NCBI GenBank assembly: GCA_038220425.1 | Contig: JBBRIV010000001.1 | Location: 1 to 60,489 of the forward strand | DNA: 60,489 nucleotides | Direction: 5' to 3' | DNA from: Candidatus Limnocylindrales bacterium | GTDB taxonomy: Bacteria > Chloroflexota > Limnocylindria > Limnocylindrales > CSP1-4 | In this document: positions 578-55,651 of the stretch, in pieces | Numbering within the stretch: position 1 is the stretch's first letter | Layout: each line of letters begins with the position of its first letter | The notes under the pieces: model-generated | The model's database searches: none | What the model was told of the DNA's origin: nothing | Seen by the model: the letters and a program-made list of their open reading frames with translations, nothing else | Made by a program: the position numbers and the translations under genes

Positions 578-653
578 GGGGGAGTAGCTCAACGGTTAGA
601 GCGGCGGGCTTATATCCCGCTGGTTCCAGGTTCGAATCCTGGCTCCCCTACCA
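578..653 (+). tRNA. tRNA-Ile, anticodon TAT (UAU), CCA encoded
   Basis: Hand-folded cloverleaf. Acceptor stem 578-584/643-649 (first pair G.U), D stem 587-590/599-602, anticodon stem 604-608/616-620. Anticodon loop is cttatat with the anticodon at 611-613. T arm is 626-630 + ttcgaat + 638-642, discriminator A650, CCA 651-653. Confidence 0.85.
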
Positions 654-5257: not shown

Positions 5258-5489
5258 TCCACCGCCGCAGTTCTTTGCCGCCGGGCTCGGCGCGCGGCGC
5301 CCCAATTAGCGATCCGATTCTTAGCGGGTGCCTGAGGGCGCCCGAAATCTGGCGTTGAGGGTCTCGCGACCGCCCGGACCGGGCTGGGTACGCACAAATC
5401 ATGCCGGCCGGCGGGTCGGATGAGGCGCCAGGTGGGCGTCGGCTCGCTCAGGCGCTCCAGACAAGTGTGGGATTGCTAAACGCGACGGC

Positions 5490-5533
5490 GCCGCGCCGAG
5501 CTGCGCCGCCGCGCCGAGCTGCGCCGCCGCGCC
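5490..5533. repeat. 18-bp tandem repeat gccgcgccgagctgcgcc, 2.4 copies
   Basis: Units at 5490-5507 and 5508-5525 are identical; a partial third unit lies at 5526-5533. The repeat is intergenic, just 3' of the response-regulator stop (5576, minus strand). Confidence 0.9.
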
Positions 5534-5575: not shown

Positions 5576-6274
5576 CTAGACGGCCTCGACGCGGTAACCC
5601 ACCGAGCGGACCGCCACGACCGACGGGCCGCCGGCAGACGAGACCTTGGCCCGCAGGCGAGCGAGGTGCGGCTTCAGCCAGAGCAGGTCGGGGTTCGGCT
5701 CCGAGGGCCAGCCGGCTCGAACCAGCCGGGCGTGGGGAACCACGTCGCCGCCGGCCCGGACCAGGGCCTCGAGCAGCCGATACTCGGTGGCCGTCAGGGG
5801 CAGCAGCGAATCGCCCACCCGGGCCTCGTGCCGGCCGGGCTCGATCGTCAGGTCGCCGGCCTGCAGGGCACTGCCGCCGCCAACCGGACCGCCGGCGGCA
5901 TCCACCCGGCGCATCACGGCCGCGATCCGGGCCAGGAGCTCCTGCCGGCCGAAGGGCTTGGTCAGGTAATCGTCGGCCCCGATCTCCAGGGCTCGGACCT
6001 TGGCCCCCTCGCCGCTTTCGCCGGACAGGACCAGGATGGGCACGTTGCCCGATGCCCGGATCTGGCCGGCCACGCTGAATCCGTCGGGACCGGGCATGGC
6101 CAGGTCGAGCAGGACCAGGTCGGGTGATTCTTCACGGAAGCGACGGACCGCCGTCAGGCCGTCATAGGCGGTGATCACCTGGTGACCGTCCTGGCCGACG
6201 AGGGCGGTGATCGCCCCGACCATCGCTGGGTCGTCGTCCACGACGAGGATCCGGAGTGGGCGGACGTTGGGCAT
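5576..6274 (-). CDS. OmpR/PhoB-family response regulator
   Basis: Receiver domain RILVVDDDP...DLVLLDLAMPGPDGF...ADDYLTKPF and a C-terminal winged-helix domain LTATEYRLLEALV...VRSVGYRV. Confidence 0.95.
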   Translation of the reverse strand: MPNVRPLRILVVDDDPAMVGAITALVGQDGHQVITAYDGLTAVRRFREESPDLVLLDLAMPGPDGFSVAGQIRASGNVPILVLSGESGEGAKVRALEIGADDYLTKPFGRQELLARIAAVMRRVDAAGGPVGGGSALQAGDLTIEPGRHEARVGDSLLPLTATEYRLLEALVRAGGDVVPHARLVRAGWPSEPNPDLLWLKPHLARLRAKVSSAGGPSVVAVRSVGYRVEAV

Positions 6275-6285
6275 GGCAGGTTCCT

Positions 6286-7566
6286 TCAGACGGCTACGGC
6301 GGCGGGCAACGCCAGGACAAATCGGGCACCACTGCCCGGGGCGGGCTCACACCATAGTCGGGCACCCATGGCTTCAGCCAGCCGACGAGCGGCATACAGG
6401 CCGATGCCCGAGCCCCGGGCGGTGTGCGTGTCACGTCGCGCGTACGGTTCGAAGATCCGCTCACGCCACTCGATCGGGATGCCCGGCCCTTCGTCGCTGA
6501 CGCTCAACCGAACGATTCCCTCGACCAGTGTGACGTCAACCGTGATTGTTGTATCCGGCGGTGCGTACTTGACCGCGTTCTCGATCAGGTGCTCGATGAT
6601 CTGGCGCAGCCGGGGTGGATCGGCCAGGGCGTGGCGGCGGACCTCGACGTGCTGCTCCAGGCGGTGCTGGCGGAGGAGTGGCTTGAGCTCCACGACGAGC
6701 TCCTCGAGTTGCGCGCCGACGTCGATCGGGGCGAGCTCAATCGGGCTCTCGTTGCTCGGCCGGATCGAGGCCAGGATCGAGTCGACCAGCCGATCAAGCC
6801 GGTCCACCTGGTCGATCGTGCCCTGGTACCACGCTTCGCGCTGGGCACGTCGCTCGGGGTCCCGGCTCTCCCGGCCGTCGAGGGGCGGATCGTCGGCCAG
6901 CAGGTCGGCGTAGGCCCGGACCACAGCCAGCGGCGTGCGCAGCTCGTGGGTGACCAGCGCGATCAGCTCGGTCCGGGCCTCATCCAGGCGCTGGAGGGCC
7001 ACGACCTGGGCTTCGGCGTCGCGCTGTTCGCGGCCCTTCTGGACGATCCCGGCGAGGAGGTCGGCGATTGCGCTCAGCTGGGCCGCATCTTCGGCGTTGA
7101 AGTCGCGCTGGGCCTCGGTCTGGACGTTCAGGACGCCCACGATCTGATCGTGCCAGGACAGCGGCACCGAGAGCATCGAGGCGACGTAGCGGCGCTGGTC
7201 CAGGCCGCGCACCCATAGGAAGTCCTCGTCGTGCTTGACGTCGACGACGATCTTGGCCTTCTGGCTGGCCGCCACCCGGCCGGTGACGCCCTCGCCGATG
7301 GGCACCCGGGCCCGCCCGATCTGGTAGCGGTCCAGGCCGTTGGTCGCGGCCAGGGTCAGATGGGTGCCGTCGCGATCGAGCAGGTACAGCGAGCTCACAT
7401 CGGCATGGAGCGCGTCGCGGGTCTCATCGACGATCGTCTCGAGGAGCTCGTCCCAGGTCCGGGCGGTGGTTGCCAAACGAGCCACCCGGTGCAGGAAGCG
7501 CAGCTGCTGGAGCTGATCCTCGGGCGAGTGATTCGGCGACGCGGCGGGCTTGGCCATGCCGTTCAT
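6286..7566 (-). CDS. cytoplasmic GAF-domain sensor histidine kinase
   Basis: ORF 6286..7602. GAF region, H-box THELRTPLAVV, and an HATPase region with N and G boxes (ENAVKYAP, DEGPGIP, GSGIGL). The start is taken at ATG 7566 (or 7557); the TTG at 7602 would sit inside a terminator hairpin. Confidence 0.9.
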   Translation of the reverse strand: MNGMAKPAASPNHSPEDQLQQLRFLHRVARLATTARTWDELLETIVDETRDALHADVSSLYLLDRDGTHLTLAATNGLDRYQIGRARVPIGEGVTGRVAASQKAKIVVDVKHDEDFLWVRGLDQRRYVASMLSVPLSWHDQIVGVLNVQTEAQRDFNAEDAAQLSAIADLLAGIVQKGREQRDAEAQVVALQRLDEARTELIALVTHELRTPLAVVRAYADLLADDPPLDGRESRDPERRAQREAWYQGTIDQVDRLDRLVDSILASIRPSNESPIELAPIDVGAQLEELVVELKPLLRQHRLEQHVEVRRHALADPPRLRQIIEHLIENAVKYAPPDTTITVDVTLVEGIVRLSVSDEGPGIPIEWRERIFEPYARRDTHTARGSGIGLYAARRLAEAMGARLWCEPAPGSGARFVLALPAAVAV

Positions 7567-16249: not shown

Positions 16250-17179
16250 TTGCGTAACCTGTTCGGCGCCCTGTCCCTGGCCTGTCTGCTGGTCCTGGCT
16301 GCCTTCGTCCCGGCTGCCTCGGCTTCGACCCAGAGCCTGTCGACCGCCAAGGTCGTGATCATCGTCGGACCGGTCGAGGGCAGCACCCCCACCTATATCG
16401 CGGATGCCAACGCGACCGCCGCGGTCGCCCGGCAGTACAGCTCCAATGTCGTGACGATCTACTCGCCGTACGCGACGTGGGCCAACGTGGAGCCGGCCCT
16501 CCAGGGTGCCTCGATCGTCGTCTACTTCGGCCATGGCAACGGCTGGCCTAGCCCCTACAAGCCGTTCCAGGAGAACACCAAGGACGGCATCGGCCTGAAC
16601 GCCGCCTCGCACAAGGGTGACTCGAACGTCCTGTATTACGGTGCGAACTACCTCGCGAAATACGTCAAGCTGGCCCCCAACGCCGTCGTGCTCCTGGGAC
16701 ACCTGTGCTACTCGGCCGGCAACTCTGAGTCGGGCGATCCTGCCCCAACGTTGGCCGTGGCCGAACAGCGGGTCGACAACATGGGCGCCGGCTGGCTCCA
16801 GACCGGCGCCCGGGCCGTGATCTCCGAGCCGTACTCGAACGTGGAAGGCTGGTACATCCAGAACCTGTTCAGCTCGTTCCAGACGATCGGCGACATGTGG
16901 CAGAACGCGCCGAATGACAACAACAACGTCACGACGCTGGGCTCGGTGCGCACCAGCTGGGCGACGGTCCAGCTCGACCCGAACCCGGGCATCCCGGCCA
17001 CCGAGAACGATCACTTCAGCCGCGGGATCAGCGGCGACATGACCCTGTTCAGCGGCGCGGTCGTGGGCAGCTCGGTGCCCTCGCCCTACGGCAAGGTCAG
17101 CCTGGGCCAGCCGGGTTCGTCCGGGCGCTCCGCGGCCGCGACGATCCAGGTCCACGTCCTGCAGCTGCACCTGCGCTGA
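16250..17179 (+). CDS. secreted hypothetical protein, His/Cys (clan-CD peptidase-like) motif family, paralogue 1
   Basis: TTG start with GGAG 7 nt upstream. Signal peptide ...PAASAS. Motifs VVIIVGP, IVVYFGHGNGWPSP, QENTKDGIGLN, AVVLLGHLCYSAGNSE. About 50% identical to the product of 54032..54913. Confidence 0.8.
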   Translation: MRNLFGALSLACLLVLAAFVPAASASTQSLSTAKVVIIVGPVEGSTPTYIADANATAAVARQYSSNVVTIYSPYATWANVEPALQGASIVVYFGHGNGWPSPYKPFQENTKDGIGLNAASHKGDSNVLYYGANYLAKYVKLAPNAVVLLGHLCYSAGNSESGDPAPTLAVAEQRVDNMGAGWLQTGARAVISEPYSNVEGWYIQNLFSSFQTIGDMWQNAPNDNNNVTTLGSVRTSWATVQLDPNPGIPATENDHFSRGISGDMTLFSGAVVGSSVPSPYGKVSLGQPGSSGRSAAATIQVHVLQLHLR

Positions 17180-41615: not shown

Positions 41616-42254
41616 ATGCCGGCCCGGCCGCGGATCGTCATCGCCACCCACTCGAGCCACAAGCTGGCCGAGCTGGCTGCGCTGCTCCGACCCGAGCGGG
41701 CCGAGCTGCTGACCCTGGATGCCCTGGCGATCGCGGTCGACCCGGTCGAGGACGGCCTGACCTTCGAGGCCAACGCCCGGCTCAAGGCCCGCTTCTACGC
41801 CCGCCTGACCGGCCTGCCCACAATCGCCGACGACTCGGGGATCGAGGTGGACGCGCTCCACGGCGGTCCCGGCGTGCGCACCCGGCGCTATGCGGGCGAG
41901 ACCGCGACCGATGTCCAGAACAACACGAAGCTGCTGGCGGTGCTGGCCGGGTTGCCGGCTGACCAGCGTGGAGCCCGCTACGTGTGCGTGCTGACGTTCG
42001 TGCTGCCCGACCAGGCCGGCCGGCGAGGTGGCCTGCCGATCGCCGCCGAAGCCCGGGGCACGCTCCGTGGCCGGATCGCCGAGGGCCCCCGGGGCAGCGC
42101 CGGCTTTGGCTACGACCCGATCTTCGAACCGCTCACGGAGCGGCCCGGCGGGCGCACGATCGGCCAGCACTCCGCCCCCGAAAAGGCGGCGATCTCGCAC
42201 CGATCCCGGGCTGCCCGGCGCCTCGCACCGCGACTGCACGCCCTGGGGTTCTGA
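41616..42254 (+). CDS. rdgB: RdgB/HAM1 non-canonical purine NTP pyrophosphatase
   Basis: IVIATHSSHKLAEL..., ADDSGIEVDAL.GGPGV.TRRYAG, GFGYDPIF, SHRSRA. Confidence 0.95.
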   Translation: MPARPRIVIATHSSHKLAELAALLRPERAELLTLDALAIAVDPVEDGLTFEANARLKARFYARLTGLPTIADDSGIEVDALHGGPGVRTRRYAGETATDVQNNTKLLAVLAGLPADQRGARYVCVLTFVLPDQAGRRGGLPIAAEARGTLRGRIAEGPRGSAGFGYDPIFEPLTERPGGRTIGQHSAPEKAAISHRSRAARRLAPRLHALGF

Positions 42255-42862
42255 GTCGCGCGCCGGGTTCGGTGCCGGTTCGGATGGGCGCGGCGGGCAG
42301 TTGTGTCGCGGCGCGCGCAGTTGTGTCGCGGCGCGGGCCCGGTTCTTCTCGAATACCTGCCGGGGGAGTGCAAAAGCAGGAATCGGCCCCACCGGCCCCC
42401 GATTTGGCCCGGCTGGACGCGCCGCCACGCACGAATTCGCGTCGCGCGGAGCCACGGCTCGCTCGAATCGCCCACGGTTCTGATCGAGTACTACTCGGGC
42501 GAATATTCGAGAAGAAGTCGAGCCGCTCCAGACGGGCGGCCGGCACGGGCAGCCTGGACTGAGCGCAGCCGGGATCATCGGCTCGTTCTGAGTCGCGCGC
42601 TACATCGCCGGGAAGTCGCGCGTCTGAACTTCGGCGCCGGGCGGTGACTGGCAGGTAACTTGGGACCGCCCGGCGTTCCTGTGCCTGCCACCGGGCGTGA
42701 GCGAGCCCAAACTTCACAGCTGCAACAACTGGCTACCACGCTCAGAATCGCTCAAACCTTGAACATTCGTTCACCAGATCGCGGAACGGCCTGATAGACT
42801 CTGGCCCGGCCGGCCGTTCCTGGCCGCCGCCGTCGGATACCGCAGCTGGAGTCAGGCCCCGC

Positions 42863-50552: not shown

Positions 50553-51643
50553 TCGCCGACCGGGCGATGCTCATGTTGGCCATGGTCGTGGCCGGCGTGG
50601 TCGCGGCCGGCGTGGTCGCGGCCGGCGTGGTCGTGTTCGGCGTGGTCGTGCTGCTCCGCGTCGTCGTGGCCGTCGTGCTCGTCGTCGTTGGGCTGGCCGC
50701 CCCAGAACGCCACCGGTACCTGCGGGTTGGTGTTGACGTTCAGCCGGAAGACGTCCGGCCGGGAGTAGTGTCCGGTGATGTCCAGGTCGAACTTGCCGCG
50801 CACGATCTGGTCCAGGTCGAGCTCGGCGGTGATGACCGTCTCGCCGTCGCGCGCCGGGCCGGCCAGGACCTGGCCCAGCGGATCGACGATGCAGCTCCCG
50901 CCGGCCATCAGTACCTCCTCGGCCGGAACGTCGACCGGGTAGTCGGCCGGGTAGTCCGAACGGCGGGCGAACTGGGTGGCCGAGAGCACGAAGCAGCGGC
51001 CCTCGATGGCGATGTGGCGCATCGTTGACAGCCAGGTCTCGCGATCGTCGGCGGTGGGCACGCAGTACAGCTCGACGCCCTGCCCGTACATCGCCAGGCG
51101 GAGCTGGGGCATGTAGTTCTCCCAGCAGATGACGGCCCCGATCCGGCCCAGCGCGGTTGGCACCACGTCCAGGGTCGAGCCGTCGCCGAAGCCCCAGATC
51201 AGGCGTTCCATCGCCGTCGGCATGAGCTTCCGGCGCGCGCCCAGCAAGGCCCCGTCGGGACCGAAGGTGAGGGCAGCGCAATAGAGTGTGCCGCCCGCCC
51301 GCTCGATCACCCCGATGACCAGGTGGACGCCGTGGTCCCGGGCGATCTCGCCCAATCTCCAGGTCGCTGGTCCGGGCACATCCACAGCGCTCTCGTGATA
51401 GCGCCGGAACCACTCGCGACCCGCGGCGCTGCGCGAGCCCACGACGGCCCCGAAGTCGGACCCCTTGGGATAACCCGATACGAACGCCTCGGGGAAGACG
51501 ACGAGCTCGGCGCCGGCTTCTGCCGCCCTGGCCGTCCACTGGGCGACCTTGTCCAGGGACGCCTCGCGATCAAATGCGACCGATGCCGCCTGGACGACGG
51601 CGACTCGAATGGTTCGGCCCGACGTACTTGGCTCAGCTGCCAT
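50549..51643 (-). CDS. nitrilase (C-N hydrolase branch 1) with C-terminal His/Asp-rich tail
   Basis: Catalytic triad context FPEAF (Glu), RRKLMPT (Lys), ICWENYMP (Cys). Tail DDEHDGHDDAEQHDHAEHDHAGRDHAGRDHAGHDHGQHEH. Confidence 0.9.
   Translation of the reverse strand: MAAEPSTSGRTIRVAVVQAASVAFDREASLDKVAQWTARAAEAGAELVVFPEAFVSGYPKGSDFGAVVGSRSAAGREWFRRYHESAVDVPGPATWRLGEIARDHGVHLVIGVIERAGGTLYCAALTFGPDGALLGARRKLMPTAMERLIWGFGDGSTLDVVPTALGRIGAVICWENYMPQLRLAMYGQGVELYCVPTADDRETWLSTMRHIAIEGRCFVLSATQFARRSDYPADYPVDVPAEEVLMAGGSCIVDPLGQVLAGPARDGETVITAELDLDQIVRGKFDLDITGHYSRPDVFRLNVNTNPQVPVAFWGGQPNDDEHDGHDDAEQHDHAEHDHAGRDHAGRDHAGHDHGQHEHRPVGE
50591..50650. repeat. four tandem 15-bp units (gccggcgtggtcgcg type) inside the nitrilase 3' end
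   Basis: Units at 50591, 50606, 50621 and 50636. The first two are identical; the last two differ at 1 and 3 positions. On the minus strand they encode the H-D-H-A-G-R repeats. Confidence 0.9.
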
Positions 51644-53097: not shown

Positions 53098-53634
53098 ATG
53101 TCAACTACTTATTTGTCAAATGTTGCCAAGTCAGGAGAAACAGGGTACGGTCTGCTCGTGACAAACGACGAAGACGCAAGCCGGCCAGCCACCCTCTGGA
53201 ACGACGCCTGGCGGGGCGTGCTGTTCGCGGCATCACGTACGCTCCAGGCGGCCGAGCCGGACCTCATCGCCCAGGCGGGATTTCCGCTGACCTGGCTTGA
53301 CGTCCTGGCCCAGCTGCACGACGCGGCCGAAGACGGCCTGCGGATGCAGGAGCTGGAACAGCGCTCGCTGTTCACACGGAGCGGGCTGACGCGCCTGATT
53401 GACCGGATCGAGGCCGCCGGACTGGTCCGGCGCGAAGCGGTCCAGGGCGATCGCCGGGGCGTCCGGGTGCTCCTGACCGAGGAGGGTCGCCGGCGCCATG
53501 ACGCCGCCTTCATCGACCACAACAAGGTGATCGAGCGCACCTTCGGGCAACGCTTGACCCAACGTCAGCTCAAGGCCGTGGCCGAGGCCCTGGCCACGTT
53601 CTGGCACGACGATCAGCCGCCGGTTGAGGGCTAG
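53098..53634 (+). CDS. MarR-family transcriptional regulator
   Basis: Within ORF 52687..53634. Winged HTH LRMQELEQRSLFTRSGLTRLIDRIEAAGLVRREAVQGDRRGVRVLLTEEG. The start is uncertain: ATG at 53098 lies in an AT-rich patch, and GTG at 53158 is an alternative. Confidence 0.85.
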   Translation: MSTTYLSNVAKSGETGYGLLVTNDEDASRPATLWNDAWRGVLFAASRTLQAAEPDLIAQAGFPLTWLDVLAQLHDAAEDGLRMQELEQRSLFTRSGLTRLIDRIEAAGLVRREAVQGDRRGVRVLLTEEGRRRHDAAFIDHNKVIERTFGQRLTQRQLKAVAEALATFWHDDQPPVEG

Positions 53635-53682
53635 CCCGAGTCACACTCGGCCGGTTGTCGAGTATCGTGAAGCCCGGTCAGG

Positions 53683-53759
53683 CGGGGCGTAGCGAAGTTT
53701 GGCATCGCGCGTGCTTTGGGAGCACGAGATCGTGGGTTCGAATCCCGCCGCCCCGACCA
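53683..53759 (+). tRNA. tRNA-Pro, anticodon TGG, CCA encoded
   Basis: Hand-folded. Acceptor stem 53683-53689/53749-53755 (C1-G72), D stem 53692-95/53705-08, anticodon stem 53710-14/53722-26. Loop is tttggga with the anticodon at 53717-53719. T arm is 53732-36 + ttcgaat + 53744-48, A73, CCA 53757-59. Confidence 0.92.
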
Positions 53760-53771
53760 ATCCCGTCCCCG
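53749..53771 (+). repeat. direct repeat copy 1 (3' acceptor strand of tRNA-Pro + ACCA + 12 nt), att-like
   Basis: cgccccgaccaatcccgtccccg, identical to 53995-54017. Confidence 0.95.
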
Positions 53772-53829
53772 GCCGCCGAACCTTCGGCTCCCGACCCACG
53801 GCCCCAACCCGCGGCTGCCGGCGCCGTGT

Positions 53830-53973
53830 CTTGACAGATATCGCCACCAGCCGCTGTATGTTTGGTCGACTGCTCGGAATCCTGGTTCGGATCCGTCCAG
53901 CGGAGACGTCCGTGCACGAATCGACCCGCTCAGCGCTGGACCCACGCCGCTGCTGGGCACGGTATCTGACAAG
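53830..53973 (+). repeat. inverted-repeat-bounded element, copy A (decayed, 144 bp)
   Basis: Ends cttgacagata / tatctgacaag (10/11 complementary). Aligns along its length with 55483-55651. Shares the identical 18-mer ccgtgcacgaatcgaccc. Lacks about 25 nt that are present in copy B. Confidence 0.8.
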
Positions 53974-53994
53974 GAATTCGCGTTTCGCGGTCCT

Positions 53995-54017
53995 CGCCCC
54001 GACCAATCCCGTCCCCG
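53995..54017 (+). repeat. direct repeat copy 2 of the tRNA-Pro 3' end, att-like
   Basis: Exact 23/23 match to 53749-53771. The flanking bases differ on both sides. Confidence 0.95.
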
Positions 54018-54031
54018 CCTCTGACCGCCAG

Positions 54032-54913
54032 TCAGGGCAGGGCTGTGATCGTCAGGTCCAGGCTGCCGGTCAGTGACCGCCGGAAGTGGCCGGCACCGTC
54101 CAACTGGGCAATCAGGTGGGCACCAGCGGTCCGCTGCGATGGATACGCGAGGTAGCTCGAAGCCCCGCCGATCGGGTGGCCCATCCAGATCTGGCGAGCC
54201 GTGCTCTTCGTGGTGAACATCGCGCTCAGGATGTAGCTGACGTCGCCGTACGGTTCGGCGAAGACCGCCTTGGCACCCACGGCCAGGAACCCGGCTGCGA
54301 AGTTCTGGATCCGCTGTCGACCGGCCGCGACCGTTGGCCAGGCCCGGCCGGGCTCCGAGTTGCCCGCCGTGTAACACATGCCGCGCAGGATCACGACCGC
54401 ATTCGGGGCAAGGTGGATCGCCGCCCGGATGAAGTTGGCACCGTAGTAGACAAGGTTCAGGTTGCCGGCATTGGCGGTGCCATTGAGGCCCAGGCCGTCC
54501 TTGGTGTTCTCCTGGTACGGGCCCCAGGGGCTGGGCCAGCCGTTACCGTGGCCCATGTCGATCAGGATGTTGGCCCCCTGGGCCGCGCTGACCACCCGAC
54601 GCCAGGTCGCGCCCGGGCTATACAACTCGATCACGGTCGCGCCGTAGCTGCGCAATTGGGCGGCCAACTGGCGGGCGTTGACGATGTTCTGGGCGGTGCC
54701 CGTGCCCGAAGGTCCAACGATGATGACGGCCCGCATCGGGGCGACGGCAACTGCAGGTGTGATGGCCGAGGTTGTTCCGGCCGGGCTCGACGCCGCGACG
54801 GTTGGCACGCTGCTAAGGCCGCCGACTCCGACCAGGGCGACGGCCAGGGTGAGCGCCCGTGCGCCCGTGAACAGGGTTGACGCCCGATGGGCGCCGTTGG
54901 CGAACCAACCCAA
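54032..54913 (-). CDS. secreted hypothetical protein, His/Cys (clan-CD peptidase-like) motif family, paralogue 2
   Basis: TTG start at 54913 with GAGGAGG 7 nt upstream. Signal peptide. Motifs VIIVGP, ILIDMGHGNGWPSP, QENTKDGLGLN, AVVILRGMCYTAGNSE. Confidence 0.8.
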   Translation of the reverse strand: MGWFANGAHRASTLFTGARALTLAVALVGVGGLSSVPTVAASSPAGTTSAITPAVAVAPMRAVIIVGPSGTGTAQNIVNARQLAAQLRSYGATVIELYSPGATWRRVVSAAQGANILIDMGHGNGWPSPWGPYQENTKDGLGLNGTANAGNLNLVYYGANFIRAAIHLAPNAVVILRGMCYTAGNSEPGRAWPTVAAGRQRIQNFAAGFLAVGAKAVFAEPYGDVSYILSAMFTTKSTARQIWMGHPIGGASSYLAYPSQRTAGAHLIAQLDGAGHFRRSLTGSLDLTITALP

Positions 54914-55075
54914 TGTCCTGCCTCCTCACTGCCAGAACGCCGTGGCATCGCGGCGACGTCGGGGATGGGTCACCTGGACCCGGGATGGCGCGCAGGGCGC
55001 CGTTCGGTCAAGTCTGGACGTGAAACTGGAACCGTGCCACGAACGTTGGTACTCAACCGCCCCCGACCATCGGGC

Positions 55076-55390
55076 TCAGCCGCGGATGGCCAGGACGATC
55101 GCCACGACGCCGAAGACGCCGATCACCACGCCCGAGACGACGTTGATGCCGCGCAGGATGGCCGGCGTGATCCGCGACCTGAATGCCGCCACGAGGCTGG
55201 TCAGGACGATCCACCAGGTGCCCGAACCGGCAAAGACGCCGACGGTCATGAGGTCCGCCTCGATGGGCGACCGGTTGCTGATCCCCAGACCGGCAAACAG
55301 GGCGGCGAAGGACAGGATCGTCAGCGGGTTGGTCAGGGTCAGGCCCAGGACCGACAGATAGGCGCCGGCCAGGCCGCCTCGGCGTGGAGT
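55076..55390 (-). pseudogene. 5'-truncated LysE/RhtB-family amino-acid exporter (C-terminal ~100 aa only)
   Basis: The last ~100 aa of ORF 55076..55756 (GLAGAYLSVLGLTLTNPLTILSFAALFAGLG...VVSGVVIGVFGVVAIVLAI) match the second half of LysE-family proteins. The upstream ~125 aa of the ORF are non-homologous read-through across element B. Confidence 0.55.
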
Positions 55391-55482
55391 GGTCGTCGCG
55401 GCGGCGCCGGGCCGAGGCTGGTGGTGACAATCTGACGAAATCCGGCCCACGAGGCCGCCGTCGCACGTCGGCCGCTCGTGTT

Positions 55483-55651
55483 CTTGACACATACCGCCAC
55501 CAGCCGCCGTATGGTCGGTCGACGGCTCGGTCTCCTGCTTCGGAGCCGTCCGGTGGAGACGCCCGTGCACGAATCGACCCACTCGGCGCCCGGTCCACGC
55601 GGGATTCGGGGTTCGAACGACCATAACGCGGCTGGTGGCGGTATCTAGCAA
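55483..55651 (+). repeat. inverted-repeat-bounded element, copy B (intact, 169 bp)
   Basis: Arm 55491-55514 (ataccgccaccagccgccgtatgg) is 22/24 complementary to 55621-55644 (ccataacgcggctggtggcggtat). Internal hairpin 55528-55548. No ORF with coding character. Confidence 0.8.

Follow-up and report, generated by a model that had tools for sequence, protein, structure and literature searches.

When the 3′ end of a tRNA gene is found duplicated, this is routinely taken to prove that an integrase has inserted a genomic island. The corresponding island signature is a partial copy of the tRNA gene (PMC4383910), and integration into tRNA genes shows an asymmetric sublocation at their 3′ ends (10.1101/2020.11.02.365908), while in cis-mobilizable elements (CIMEs) both attL and attR are kept and the integration genes are lost (PMC5704250). 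Target duplications of the insertion sequences (ISs) IS1549 and IS1634 range from 8 to 514 bp and are a precedent for long, variable duplications (PMC2266710), and the 15-bp duplication at the casposon of Aciduliprofundum boonei results from staggered cuts followed by fill-in (PMC5137440). Here we describe a locus that resembles each of these systems in part. It lies in a 60,489-nucleotide (nt) stretch of DNA from a Candidatus Limnocylindrales bacterium (Chloroflexota; contig JBBRIV010000001.1 of assembly GCA_038220425.1, positions 1 to 60,489), hereafter called the window, in which an exact 23-bp duplication of the 3′ end of a tRNA-Pro gene brackets a 223-bp non-coding insert that is missing from the closest relatives. 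Our preferred reading, to which we give a probability of roughly 45%, is that native repeat DNA was inserted duplicatively and that the local target was duplicated in the process.

Orthologous loci of relatives, which carry L numbers here, were retrieved via the secreted protein and the MarR-family regulator on either side of the tRNA. The features at the centre of the argument are as follows.

53683..53759, + strand: tRNA-Pro, anticodon TGG, encoded CCA (ARAGORN; Rfam, 64.6 bits)
53749..53771, + strand: first copy of the direct repeat, made up of the 3′-terminal 11 nt of the tRNA and 12 nt of spacer (exact match, z 13.9)
53772..53994, no strand: insert, 223 bp, non-coding, absent from L068, L005 and L002 (comparison with relatives; G+C at third codon positions, GC3)
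53995..54017, + strand: direct repeat copy 2, the ancestral position of the tRNA 3′ end beside the secreted-protein gene (alignment to L002)

The 23-mer, CGCCCCGACCAATCCCGTCCCCG, has two exact copies in the window, both on the + strand, at 53749-53771 and 53995-54017. No third match with three or fewer mismatches was found on either strand of the 60 kb, and none is expected by chance (0 in 100 dinucleotide-preserving shuffles). Tandem repeats excluded, the pair is the longest exact direct repeat in the window, and the z of 13.9 applies to it as the flanking repeat of hairpin copy A, described below. Perfect identity extends no further than 23 bp, since the bases adjoining the two copies are unlike (c/t to the left, g/c to the right). 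Of copy 1, 7 nt are the 3′ strand of the acceptor stem; the discriminator and the encoded CCA come next, and the other 12 nt are spacer downstream of the tRNA. The tRNA part alone (11 nt, CGCCCCGACCA) is also found at 6212 and 19640, the window being 70% GC; because it recurs by chance, these 11 bases are not significant alone, and only the whole 23-mer is. The tRNA-Pro itself is intact according to both ARAGORN and Rfam, is 98–99% identical to the tRNA-Pro of relatives, and is followed downstream by a displaced 3′ fragment in the same orientation (53683-53759 vs 53995-54017), as in the island signature. An earlier note on this DNA had described an exact 23-bp duplication of the tRNA-Pro 3′ end 246 bp apart, and the repeat, its coordinates, the make-up of copy 1 and the differing flanks were all borne out; the search that it proposed for other copies of the 23-mer returned just these two in the window. 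Tandem duplication was considered as a source of the repeat and rejected, as the sequences 3′ of the two 23-mers show weak similarity over about 10 bases and no homology past them.

The 246 bp are a derived insertion gained in the lineage of the window, because three relatives, L068, L005 and L002, hold the empty site that the earlier note had suggested looking for. In L068, the closest relative (93% amino acid identity in MarR), the MarR stop codon is followed by 48 nt, the tRNA-Pro, 17 nt and the stop codon of the secreted-protein gene, and in L005 and L002 the tRNA-Pro lies 18 and 20 nt from that stop codon. By blastn, 53657-53759 and 53995-54958 of the window fall on one contiguous stretch of L002 (2127-1075), with 53995-54958 corresponding to L002 2035-1075, so that homology resumes exactly at the first base of the second 23-mer (53995). 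In the alignment to L068 the blocks end at 53774 and resume at 54038, and the sequence to the right of repeat copy 2 is orthologous to the empty sites (z 8.7–11.1). The 12 post-tRNA bases of the repeat belong to a spacer that differs in every relative, yet the two copies in the window are identical at 23 of 23 positions. Of the more distant relatives, L001 has 78 nt of spacer after the tRNA, and L069 and L071 have about 72 nt, which include a terminator-like hairpin; in L003 the downstream spacer position holds 4 kb of genes, and L075 has a different neighbouring gene. No second tRNA 3′ end was seen in L001, L003, L069, L071 or L075.

The inserted DNA contains no gene. No open reading frame (ORF) is contained within 53772-53994, and the ORFs that cross it have GC3 values of 0.62–0.71, as against 0.82–0.95 in real genes. 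About 142 of its 223 bp consist of a degenerate copy (copy A) of a long-hairpin repeat, a second copy of which (copy B) lies 1.7 kb away. The earlier note had thus been right to describe the enclosed 223 bp as free of ORFs and as largely copy A of an inverted-repeat element, with the qualification that the inversion lies inside each copy, whereas copies A and B themselves stand in direct orientation. The hairpin-related features of this part of the window are these.

53758..53800, + strand: left-junction stretch resembling L011-type hairpin arms, significance uncertain (z 5.6, 0/300 shuffles, 1 of 24 comparisons)
53808..53830, + strand: arm-like sequence (GCGGCTGCCGGCG...) adjoining copy A, possible solo right arm (inverted repeat; 14-nt match to an arm remnant in L002)
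53831..53972, + strand: hairpin-repeat copy A, degenerate (covariance model R1, 134.7 bits)
55416..55439, + strand: solo right-arm-like sequence left of copy B (repeat analysis)
55484..55651, + strand: hairpin-repeat copy B, 168 nt, at a site orthologous to that of the L005 copy (R1, 184.9 bits; fold −91.2 kcal/mol)

Copy B has 39-nt arms that are 85% complementary, with 90 nt between them, and its RNA fold of −91.2 kcal/mol corresponds to z −5.0 vs shuffles. Copy A is 86% identical to it over 108 bp (blastn) and 82.5% identical over the whole hairpin and has lost about 26 nt of the right arm. The 223-bp insert, taken whole, folds no better than shuffles (z −1.15). What remains of the insert outside the hairpin, a left part of 59 nt and a right part of 22 nt, has no match elsewhere in the window or in the retrieved loci. 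A scan for sigma-70 promoters and terminators found none. At the left junction, 53758-53777 (AATCCCGTCCCCGGCCGCCG) matches the L011 hairpin's left arm at 18 of 20 positions, and 53784-53795 is reminiscent of the right arm of that hairpin; such a likeness could reflect a collapsed second hairpin, a microhomology used in joining, or chance. A circle or attP junction would read GCGGTCCT-23-mer-GCCGCCGAACC.

These comparisons bear on where the insert came from and when. Copy A is closer to copy B (82.5%) than copy B is to its L005 orthologue (74%), which argues that copy A belongs to the lineage's own repeat stock and is not foreign. The insertion is younger than the split of A and B, because the 23-mers carry no mutation while A and B differ by 17.5%. 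Had A been copied from B at the time of insertion, that divergence would predict about 4 differences between the 23-mers, and 0 are seen, an outcome whose probability we estimate at about 0.01–0.04; the source of the 223 bp was probably an unseen copy that had already decayed. Since a decayed hairpin is unlikely to be an active agent, we treat it as probably a passenger and not the driver. Two other origins were tried and rejected. A segmental copy of the LysE-upstream region, with copy B and its chromosomal flanks, fails in that the flanks of A are not significantly similar to those of B or of the L005 copy. Transposition of the hairpin itself fails as the direct cause of the 23-bp repeat in that 59 and 22 nt separate its ends from the repeats and no flanking repeats were found at six other copies.

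Copies A and B belong to a dispersed family resembling miniature inverted-repeat transposable elements (MITEs) and repetitive extragenic palindromes forming hairpins (REPINs), undescribed as far as these searches show. In L005 a 168-nt hairpin (1003-1170) occupies the orthologous spacer between the LysE and lipoprotein genes, where L002 has arm remnants only and L001, L003 and L004 have no hairpin. Other members lie upstream of an extracytoplasmic function (ECF) sigma-factor gene in L011 (1100-1267), directly 3′ of MarR in L069 (5562-5758) and, in L071, upstream of a small ORF (56 bits), with a divergent second one between MarR and tRNA-Pro (loci 5297-5492 and ~6515-6735). Family members measure about 168–200 nt with inverted arms of 36–41 nt, and their presence varies at orthologous sites; the arms vary between subfamilies yet stay complementary, and the central motif CGTGCACGAATCG is conserved. 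The tRNA was the one match in Rfam 15, all others having E ≥ 6 even with a permissive E-value included. A hairpin-core pattern, matched by copy A, had a single match among metagenome contigs, L011, and a paired-arm pattern had five unrelated chance matches among genome contigs. No target duplication is visible at the hairpin ends themselves, and exact repeats flank two of the eight copies (23 bp and 16 bp), with none found at the other six. A 17-nt imperfect repeat around the L005 hairpin was rejected as a target duplication, as relatives in which that site is empty keep about 230 nt between the two positions. A 9-mer equal to the tRNA-Pro 3′ end, CCCCGACCA, occurs in L071 at 6749-6757, where the divergent hairpin immediately precedes it and the intact tRNA-Pro follows about 55 nt downstream; a decayed tRNA fragment and a chance match are both conceivable.

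The 16-bp repeat belongs to a second bracketed segment in the window, at the 3′ end of the Ham1/RdgB gene (41616-42254).

42248..42263, + strand: exact 16-mer GTTCTGAGTCGCGCGC, copy 1, overlapping the Ham1/RdgB stop codon (z 6.5, 0/400 shuffles)
42264..42584, no strand: 321 bp enclosed by the 16-mers, weak candidate for the hairpin family (R1, 18.2 bits, E 0.007)
42585..42600, + strand: 16-mer copy 2 (exact repeat)

The 321 bp hold a 20-nt tandem repeat at 42297-42335 and a long imperfect hairpin at about 42330-42529, a 40-nt-arm inverted repeat with a central motif, CACGCACGAATTCG, related to that of the hairpin family and a fold z of −2.1; the conserved region upstream of LytR starts at about 42597. 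Alignment of the insert at tRNA-Pro with the segment at Ham1 revealed no common ends or flanks, and because the two repeats are unrelated and differ in length, one site-specific integrase cannot explain both cases. An empty Ham1-LytR site would read Ham1 stop-GTCGCGCGC-TACATCG, without the 321-bp segment; L075 is rearranged at this site. Of the 23-bp and 16-bp repeats, it is the first alone that has been shown to flank an insertion.

The tRNA-Pro locus is a hot spot of insertion and rearrangement in this lineage, as other relatives carry islets flanked by tRNA-Pro fragments. A 41-nt copy of tRNA-Pro nt 1-41 lies beside MarR in L002, L003 and L070 (fragment repeats at L002 3850-3916 and 2061-2127, L003 18209-18256 and 14931-14978, and L070 8327-8367); the repeat in L002 is 67 nt long, 99% identical, and also covers 26 nt of sequence 5′ of the tRNA. 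In L002 and L003, a 1.75–3.3-kb islet without an integrase (Fic and hypothetical proteins) lies between the tRNA fragment and the intact tRNA, and in L070 the contig ends inside the islet (a PIN protein and hypotheticals) before an intact tRNA is reached. These islets are a second type of insertion at the same tRNA-Pro, on its 5′ side.

In a duplicative insertion, a 223-bp piece of native non-coding repeat DNA would have entered the short stretch that separates tRNA-Pro from the secreted-protein gene convergent with it, recently and in this lineage alone. The local 23-bp target, made up of the last 11 nt of the tRNA and 12 nt of strain-specific spacer, would have been duplicated on either side, and the inserted piece would be a decayed long-hairpin repeat with short flanks. 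A locus of this genome lineage that has not been seen would have supplied the piece, by copying or by transfer. The tRNA would be intact merely because the duplicated stretch happens to hold its 3′ end. The duplication would have arisen by one of three routes: fill-in of a staggered break, a switch of the replication template to the donor locus with a return 23 nt upstream, or transposition of the IS1549/IS1634 type, which gives long, variable target duplications. Local target duplication directly predicts the 23/23 identity, lineage-specific spacer included, and we do not infer a recombinase that recognises tRNA-Pro.

Several points weigh against this reading. We know of no bacterial mechanism that routinely yields a 23-bp target duplication without terminal inverted repeats, and at this insert no terminal inverted repeats abut the 23-mers, nor is either of its ends an inverted copy of the other. 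Random insertion would seldom hit the 3′ end of a tRNA gene, the duplication of which is the textbook footprint of an integrase. The donor locus is unseen, and six hairpin copies lie without flanking repeats. Both sides just past the 23-mer are weakly similar to the spacer of L003 (z about 3), a likeness that would fit an attP carrying diverged homology to the tRNA flank. Finally, the Ham1 segment parallels the tRNA-Pro case as no more than a candidate insertion, its hairpin is a weak family member (18 bits), and the contig of L077, the one close relative there (Ham1 96% identical), stops 17 nt beyond the Ham1 stop codon with what looks like an occupied-type junction.

Duplicative insertion is ranked above the scar of an integrase, neither being proven. 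In the latter case, a tyrosine-integrase element would have entered at the 3′-end sublocation of tRNA-Pro and then lost its integrase and cargo by internal deletion, perhaps between hairpin copies, to leave a minimal CIME-like remnant. We consider this plausible but on balance unlikely, and the strongest of the alternatives. It accounts for the classical island signature, a partial tRNA copy on the 3′ side of the intact tRNA that has the same orientation and starts at the acceptor 3′ strand, as well as for the empty sites in relatives; it also agrees with the presence of fragment-flanked, integrase-less islets at the same tRNA-Pro in L002, L003 and L070, and with the weak residual similarity past the identity block. 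Against it stand the searches for a responsible element, which gave no support to the integrase-mediated insertion proposed in the earlier note. Pfam revealed no integrase, recombinase or transposase domain in the ~46 predicted proteins of the window that were scanned, and these include no Cas1. A full-length island was looked for in the collections searched, and none had ends matching the insert. By blastn the insert had no match in phages and plasmids; viral contigs gave 0 matches for the 23-mer, the hairpin core and the left junction, and 56 for the tRNA 3′ 22-mer, mostly AT-rich downstream and none similar to the insert. No related element turned up in the viral, phage and plasmid collections, and neither the 23-mer nor the insert was present in a phage, plasmid or viral contig. 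Moreover, the 223 bp contain native repeat only and no recognisable element DNA, lineage-specific spacer makes up over half of the identity block, the two att copies would be perfect though the cargo is wholly gone, and the second, unrelated bracketed segment at a non-tRNA site needs another cause. What stands of the earlier proposal is a real insertion that duplicated the tRNA 3′ end, as seen from the empty sites and the restart of L002 homology at 53995; a tRNA-specific integrase is disfavoured by the native repeat DNA, the share of spacer in the repeat and the Ham1 parallel.

The remaining explanations are less probable. The two bracketed segments could represent an undescribed class of 0.2–0.3-kb non-autonomous insertions in Limnocylindria-like Chloroflexota, carrying a long-hairpin module, lying past gene 3′ ends and making long duplications that vary in length, with 23 bp at tRNA-Pro and 16 bp at the Ham1 stop, by an enzyme that is neither a classical tRNA integrase nor a transposase dependent on terminal inverted repeats; we think this rather doubtful. 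An assembly artefact seems improbable: a larger island or strain variant would have been collapsed or mis-joined, for instance via hairpin copies, so that the 223-bp interior is not the true sequence. The closest relatives are all metagenome sequences or metagenome-assembled genomes (MAGs), so the window is apparently metagenome-derived too, the interior carries a repeat family that breaks assemblies, and L077 ends at a comparable spot. However, at each junction unique sequence runs into the repeat over more than 23 bp, which at the usual k-mer sizes should have needed real reads, copy A is no simple chimera of known copies, and under an artefact of this kind the duplication would still exist and the insert would merely differ in size. 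About as improbable, in our judgement, is a live miniature integrative element, a 246-bp unit (the 223 bp and one 23-mer) amounting to a bare attP that excises as a circle with an integrase supplied from elsewhere. Both repeats are perfect, the size is near that of a complete arm-core-arm attP (that of lambda is about 240 bp) and the inverted arm motifs are putative protein-binding sites. Yet no second copy of the unit was found, the hairpin core matched one metagenome locus of unrelated context and no viral contig, the repeat family that includes the arm motifs occurs where no tRNA fragment is present, copy A is decayed and no integrase is known. There is next to no chance that the repeat is an ancient local duplication or a coincidence without any insertion. 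The sequence is GC-rich and of low complexity and the 11 tRNA bases do recur by chance, but 0 chance 23-mers are expected, three relatives lack the segment, and an old repeat would have lost its 23/23 identity by the time the enclosed hairpin had diverged 17.5% from its nearest relative; the empty sites and the shuffle test together effectively refute this explanation.

The surroundings of the insert look like ordinary chromosome. The local gene order is CN-hydrolase (−), MarR (+), tRNA-Pro (+), insert, secreted protein (−), truncated LysE (−), lipoprotein (+) and homocysteine S-methyltransferase (+), of which the following were characterised.

53098..53634, + strand: MarR-family regulator gene (Pfam MarR_2, 7e-14)
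54032..54913, − strand: conserved secreted protein, function unassigned, convergent with the tRNA (GC3 0.85, 1838 homologues, no Pfam match)
55076..55420, − strand: truncated LysE-family gene, C-terminal half remaining (Pfam LysE profile positions 99-190 of 193)

The start of the MarR gene is uncertain, and the lengths of its relatives (158–160 amino acids) suggest one near 53152; the gap of 48 nt between MarR and the tRNA is common to the orthologous loci in L068, L002 and L069. Homologues of the flanking proteins come almost solely from metagenomes and MAGs, the few that are named being Candidatus Limnocylindrales or Chloroflexota, and the 1838 homologues of the secreted protein are likewise mostly unnamed, with some in Candidatus Limnocylindrales MAGs. 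A paralogue of the secreted protein, 41% identical, is encoded 37 kb off at 16250-17179 (+), and an exact inverted 22-mer is common to both genes. Full-length LysE is 205 amino acids long in relatives; compared with L001, L003, L004 and L005, the window has a deletion of about 450 bp that removes codons 1-93 and the upstream leader, and in L002 the LysE gene is wholly absent. The leader 5′ of full-length LysE (L005 ~1220-1400, with equivalents in L004 and L001) has conserved hairpins, for example GCCCTCGGCAACGTGCCGAGGGC and GAGCGCCCGATTCGGGCGC, which are deleted in the window, and it may be a regulatory leader. Elsewhere, the ~46 proteins scanned with Pfam include MreB/MreC, a polysaccharide biosynthesis cluster, RNase PH, Ham1, LytR and ABC transporters. 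The window also holds a tRNA-Ile with the rare anticodon TAT (UAU) at 578-653 (+), and short-period tandem repeats inside coding regions at 50590-50633 and 5489-5533 (15-nt and 18-nt units).

On present evidence the insert affects or functionally disrupts no gene and is a minor structural variant. It is nonetheless a caution for island-calling pipelines, as a real footprint with an empty site here encloses 223 bp of native repeat with no recombinase in sight. The locus also documents a hypervariable tRNA-Pro site, at which different relatives have insertions on one or the other side of the tRNA, in a soil and freshwater lineage about which little is known, and brings out an apparently undescribed family of dispersed long-hairpin repeats. 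If the Ham1 case is true, it would point to an insertion mechanism in Chloroflexota with long, variable target duplications.

How, then, does the locus compare with the systems described to date? With tRNA islands and CIMEs it shares an intact tRNA followed by a partial 3′ copy in the same orientation, an empty site in relatives, and two repeats without integration genes between them, as in a CIME if the repeats act as att sites (PMC5704250). It differs from them in its 223-bp interior, which is neither of island-scale length nor a multigene foreign cargo and has no integrase, element genes or recognisable foreign DNA, in a repeat of which more than half is lineage-specific spacer, and in the lack of a parent element in the collections searched. 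With the IS1634/IS1549 group of the IS4 superfamily it may have in common long direct repeats of variable length (here 23 bp and perhaps 16 bp; 8–514 bp in that group) that flank an insertion at an arbitrary target (PMC2266710). In contrast to that group, no transposase was found in the window, the edges of the insert have no terminal repeats, and the insert, a 0.2-kb decayed repeat, is neither an IS nor a clear MITE derivative. The casposon of A. boonei offers another likeness, as its target duplication also overlaps the 3′ end of a tRNA-Pro, by 5 bp in the casposon and by 11 bp here (PMC5137440). The casposon duplication, however, abuts the terminal inverted repeats of a multi-kb element that encodes Cas1, whereas the present locus combines a duplication of 23 bp and an insert of 223 bp with a bacterial host and has neither inverted repeats at the edges nor Cas1. 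Finally, the 168-nt hairpin module is MITE- or REPIN-like in being short, non-coding, dispersed and intergenic with inverted arms of 36–41 nt. It departs from MITEs in lacking both a visible target duplication at the hairpin ends and a known cognate transposase; terminal inverted repeats do not abut the duplication, and a short duplication of fixed length does not accompany every copy. The hairpin arms differ between subfamilies with the central CGTGCACGAATCG kept, and the 23-bp repeats lie 59 and 22 nt from the hairpin ends. Overall, the locus is a small repeat-flanked insertion at a tRNA gene, a local rearrangement and not a gene-carrying island.

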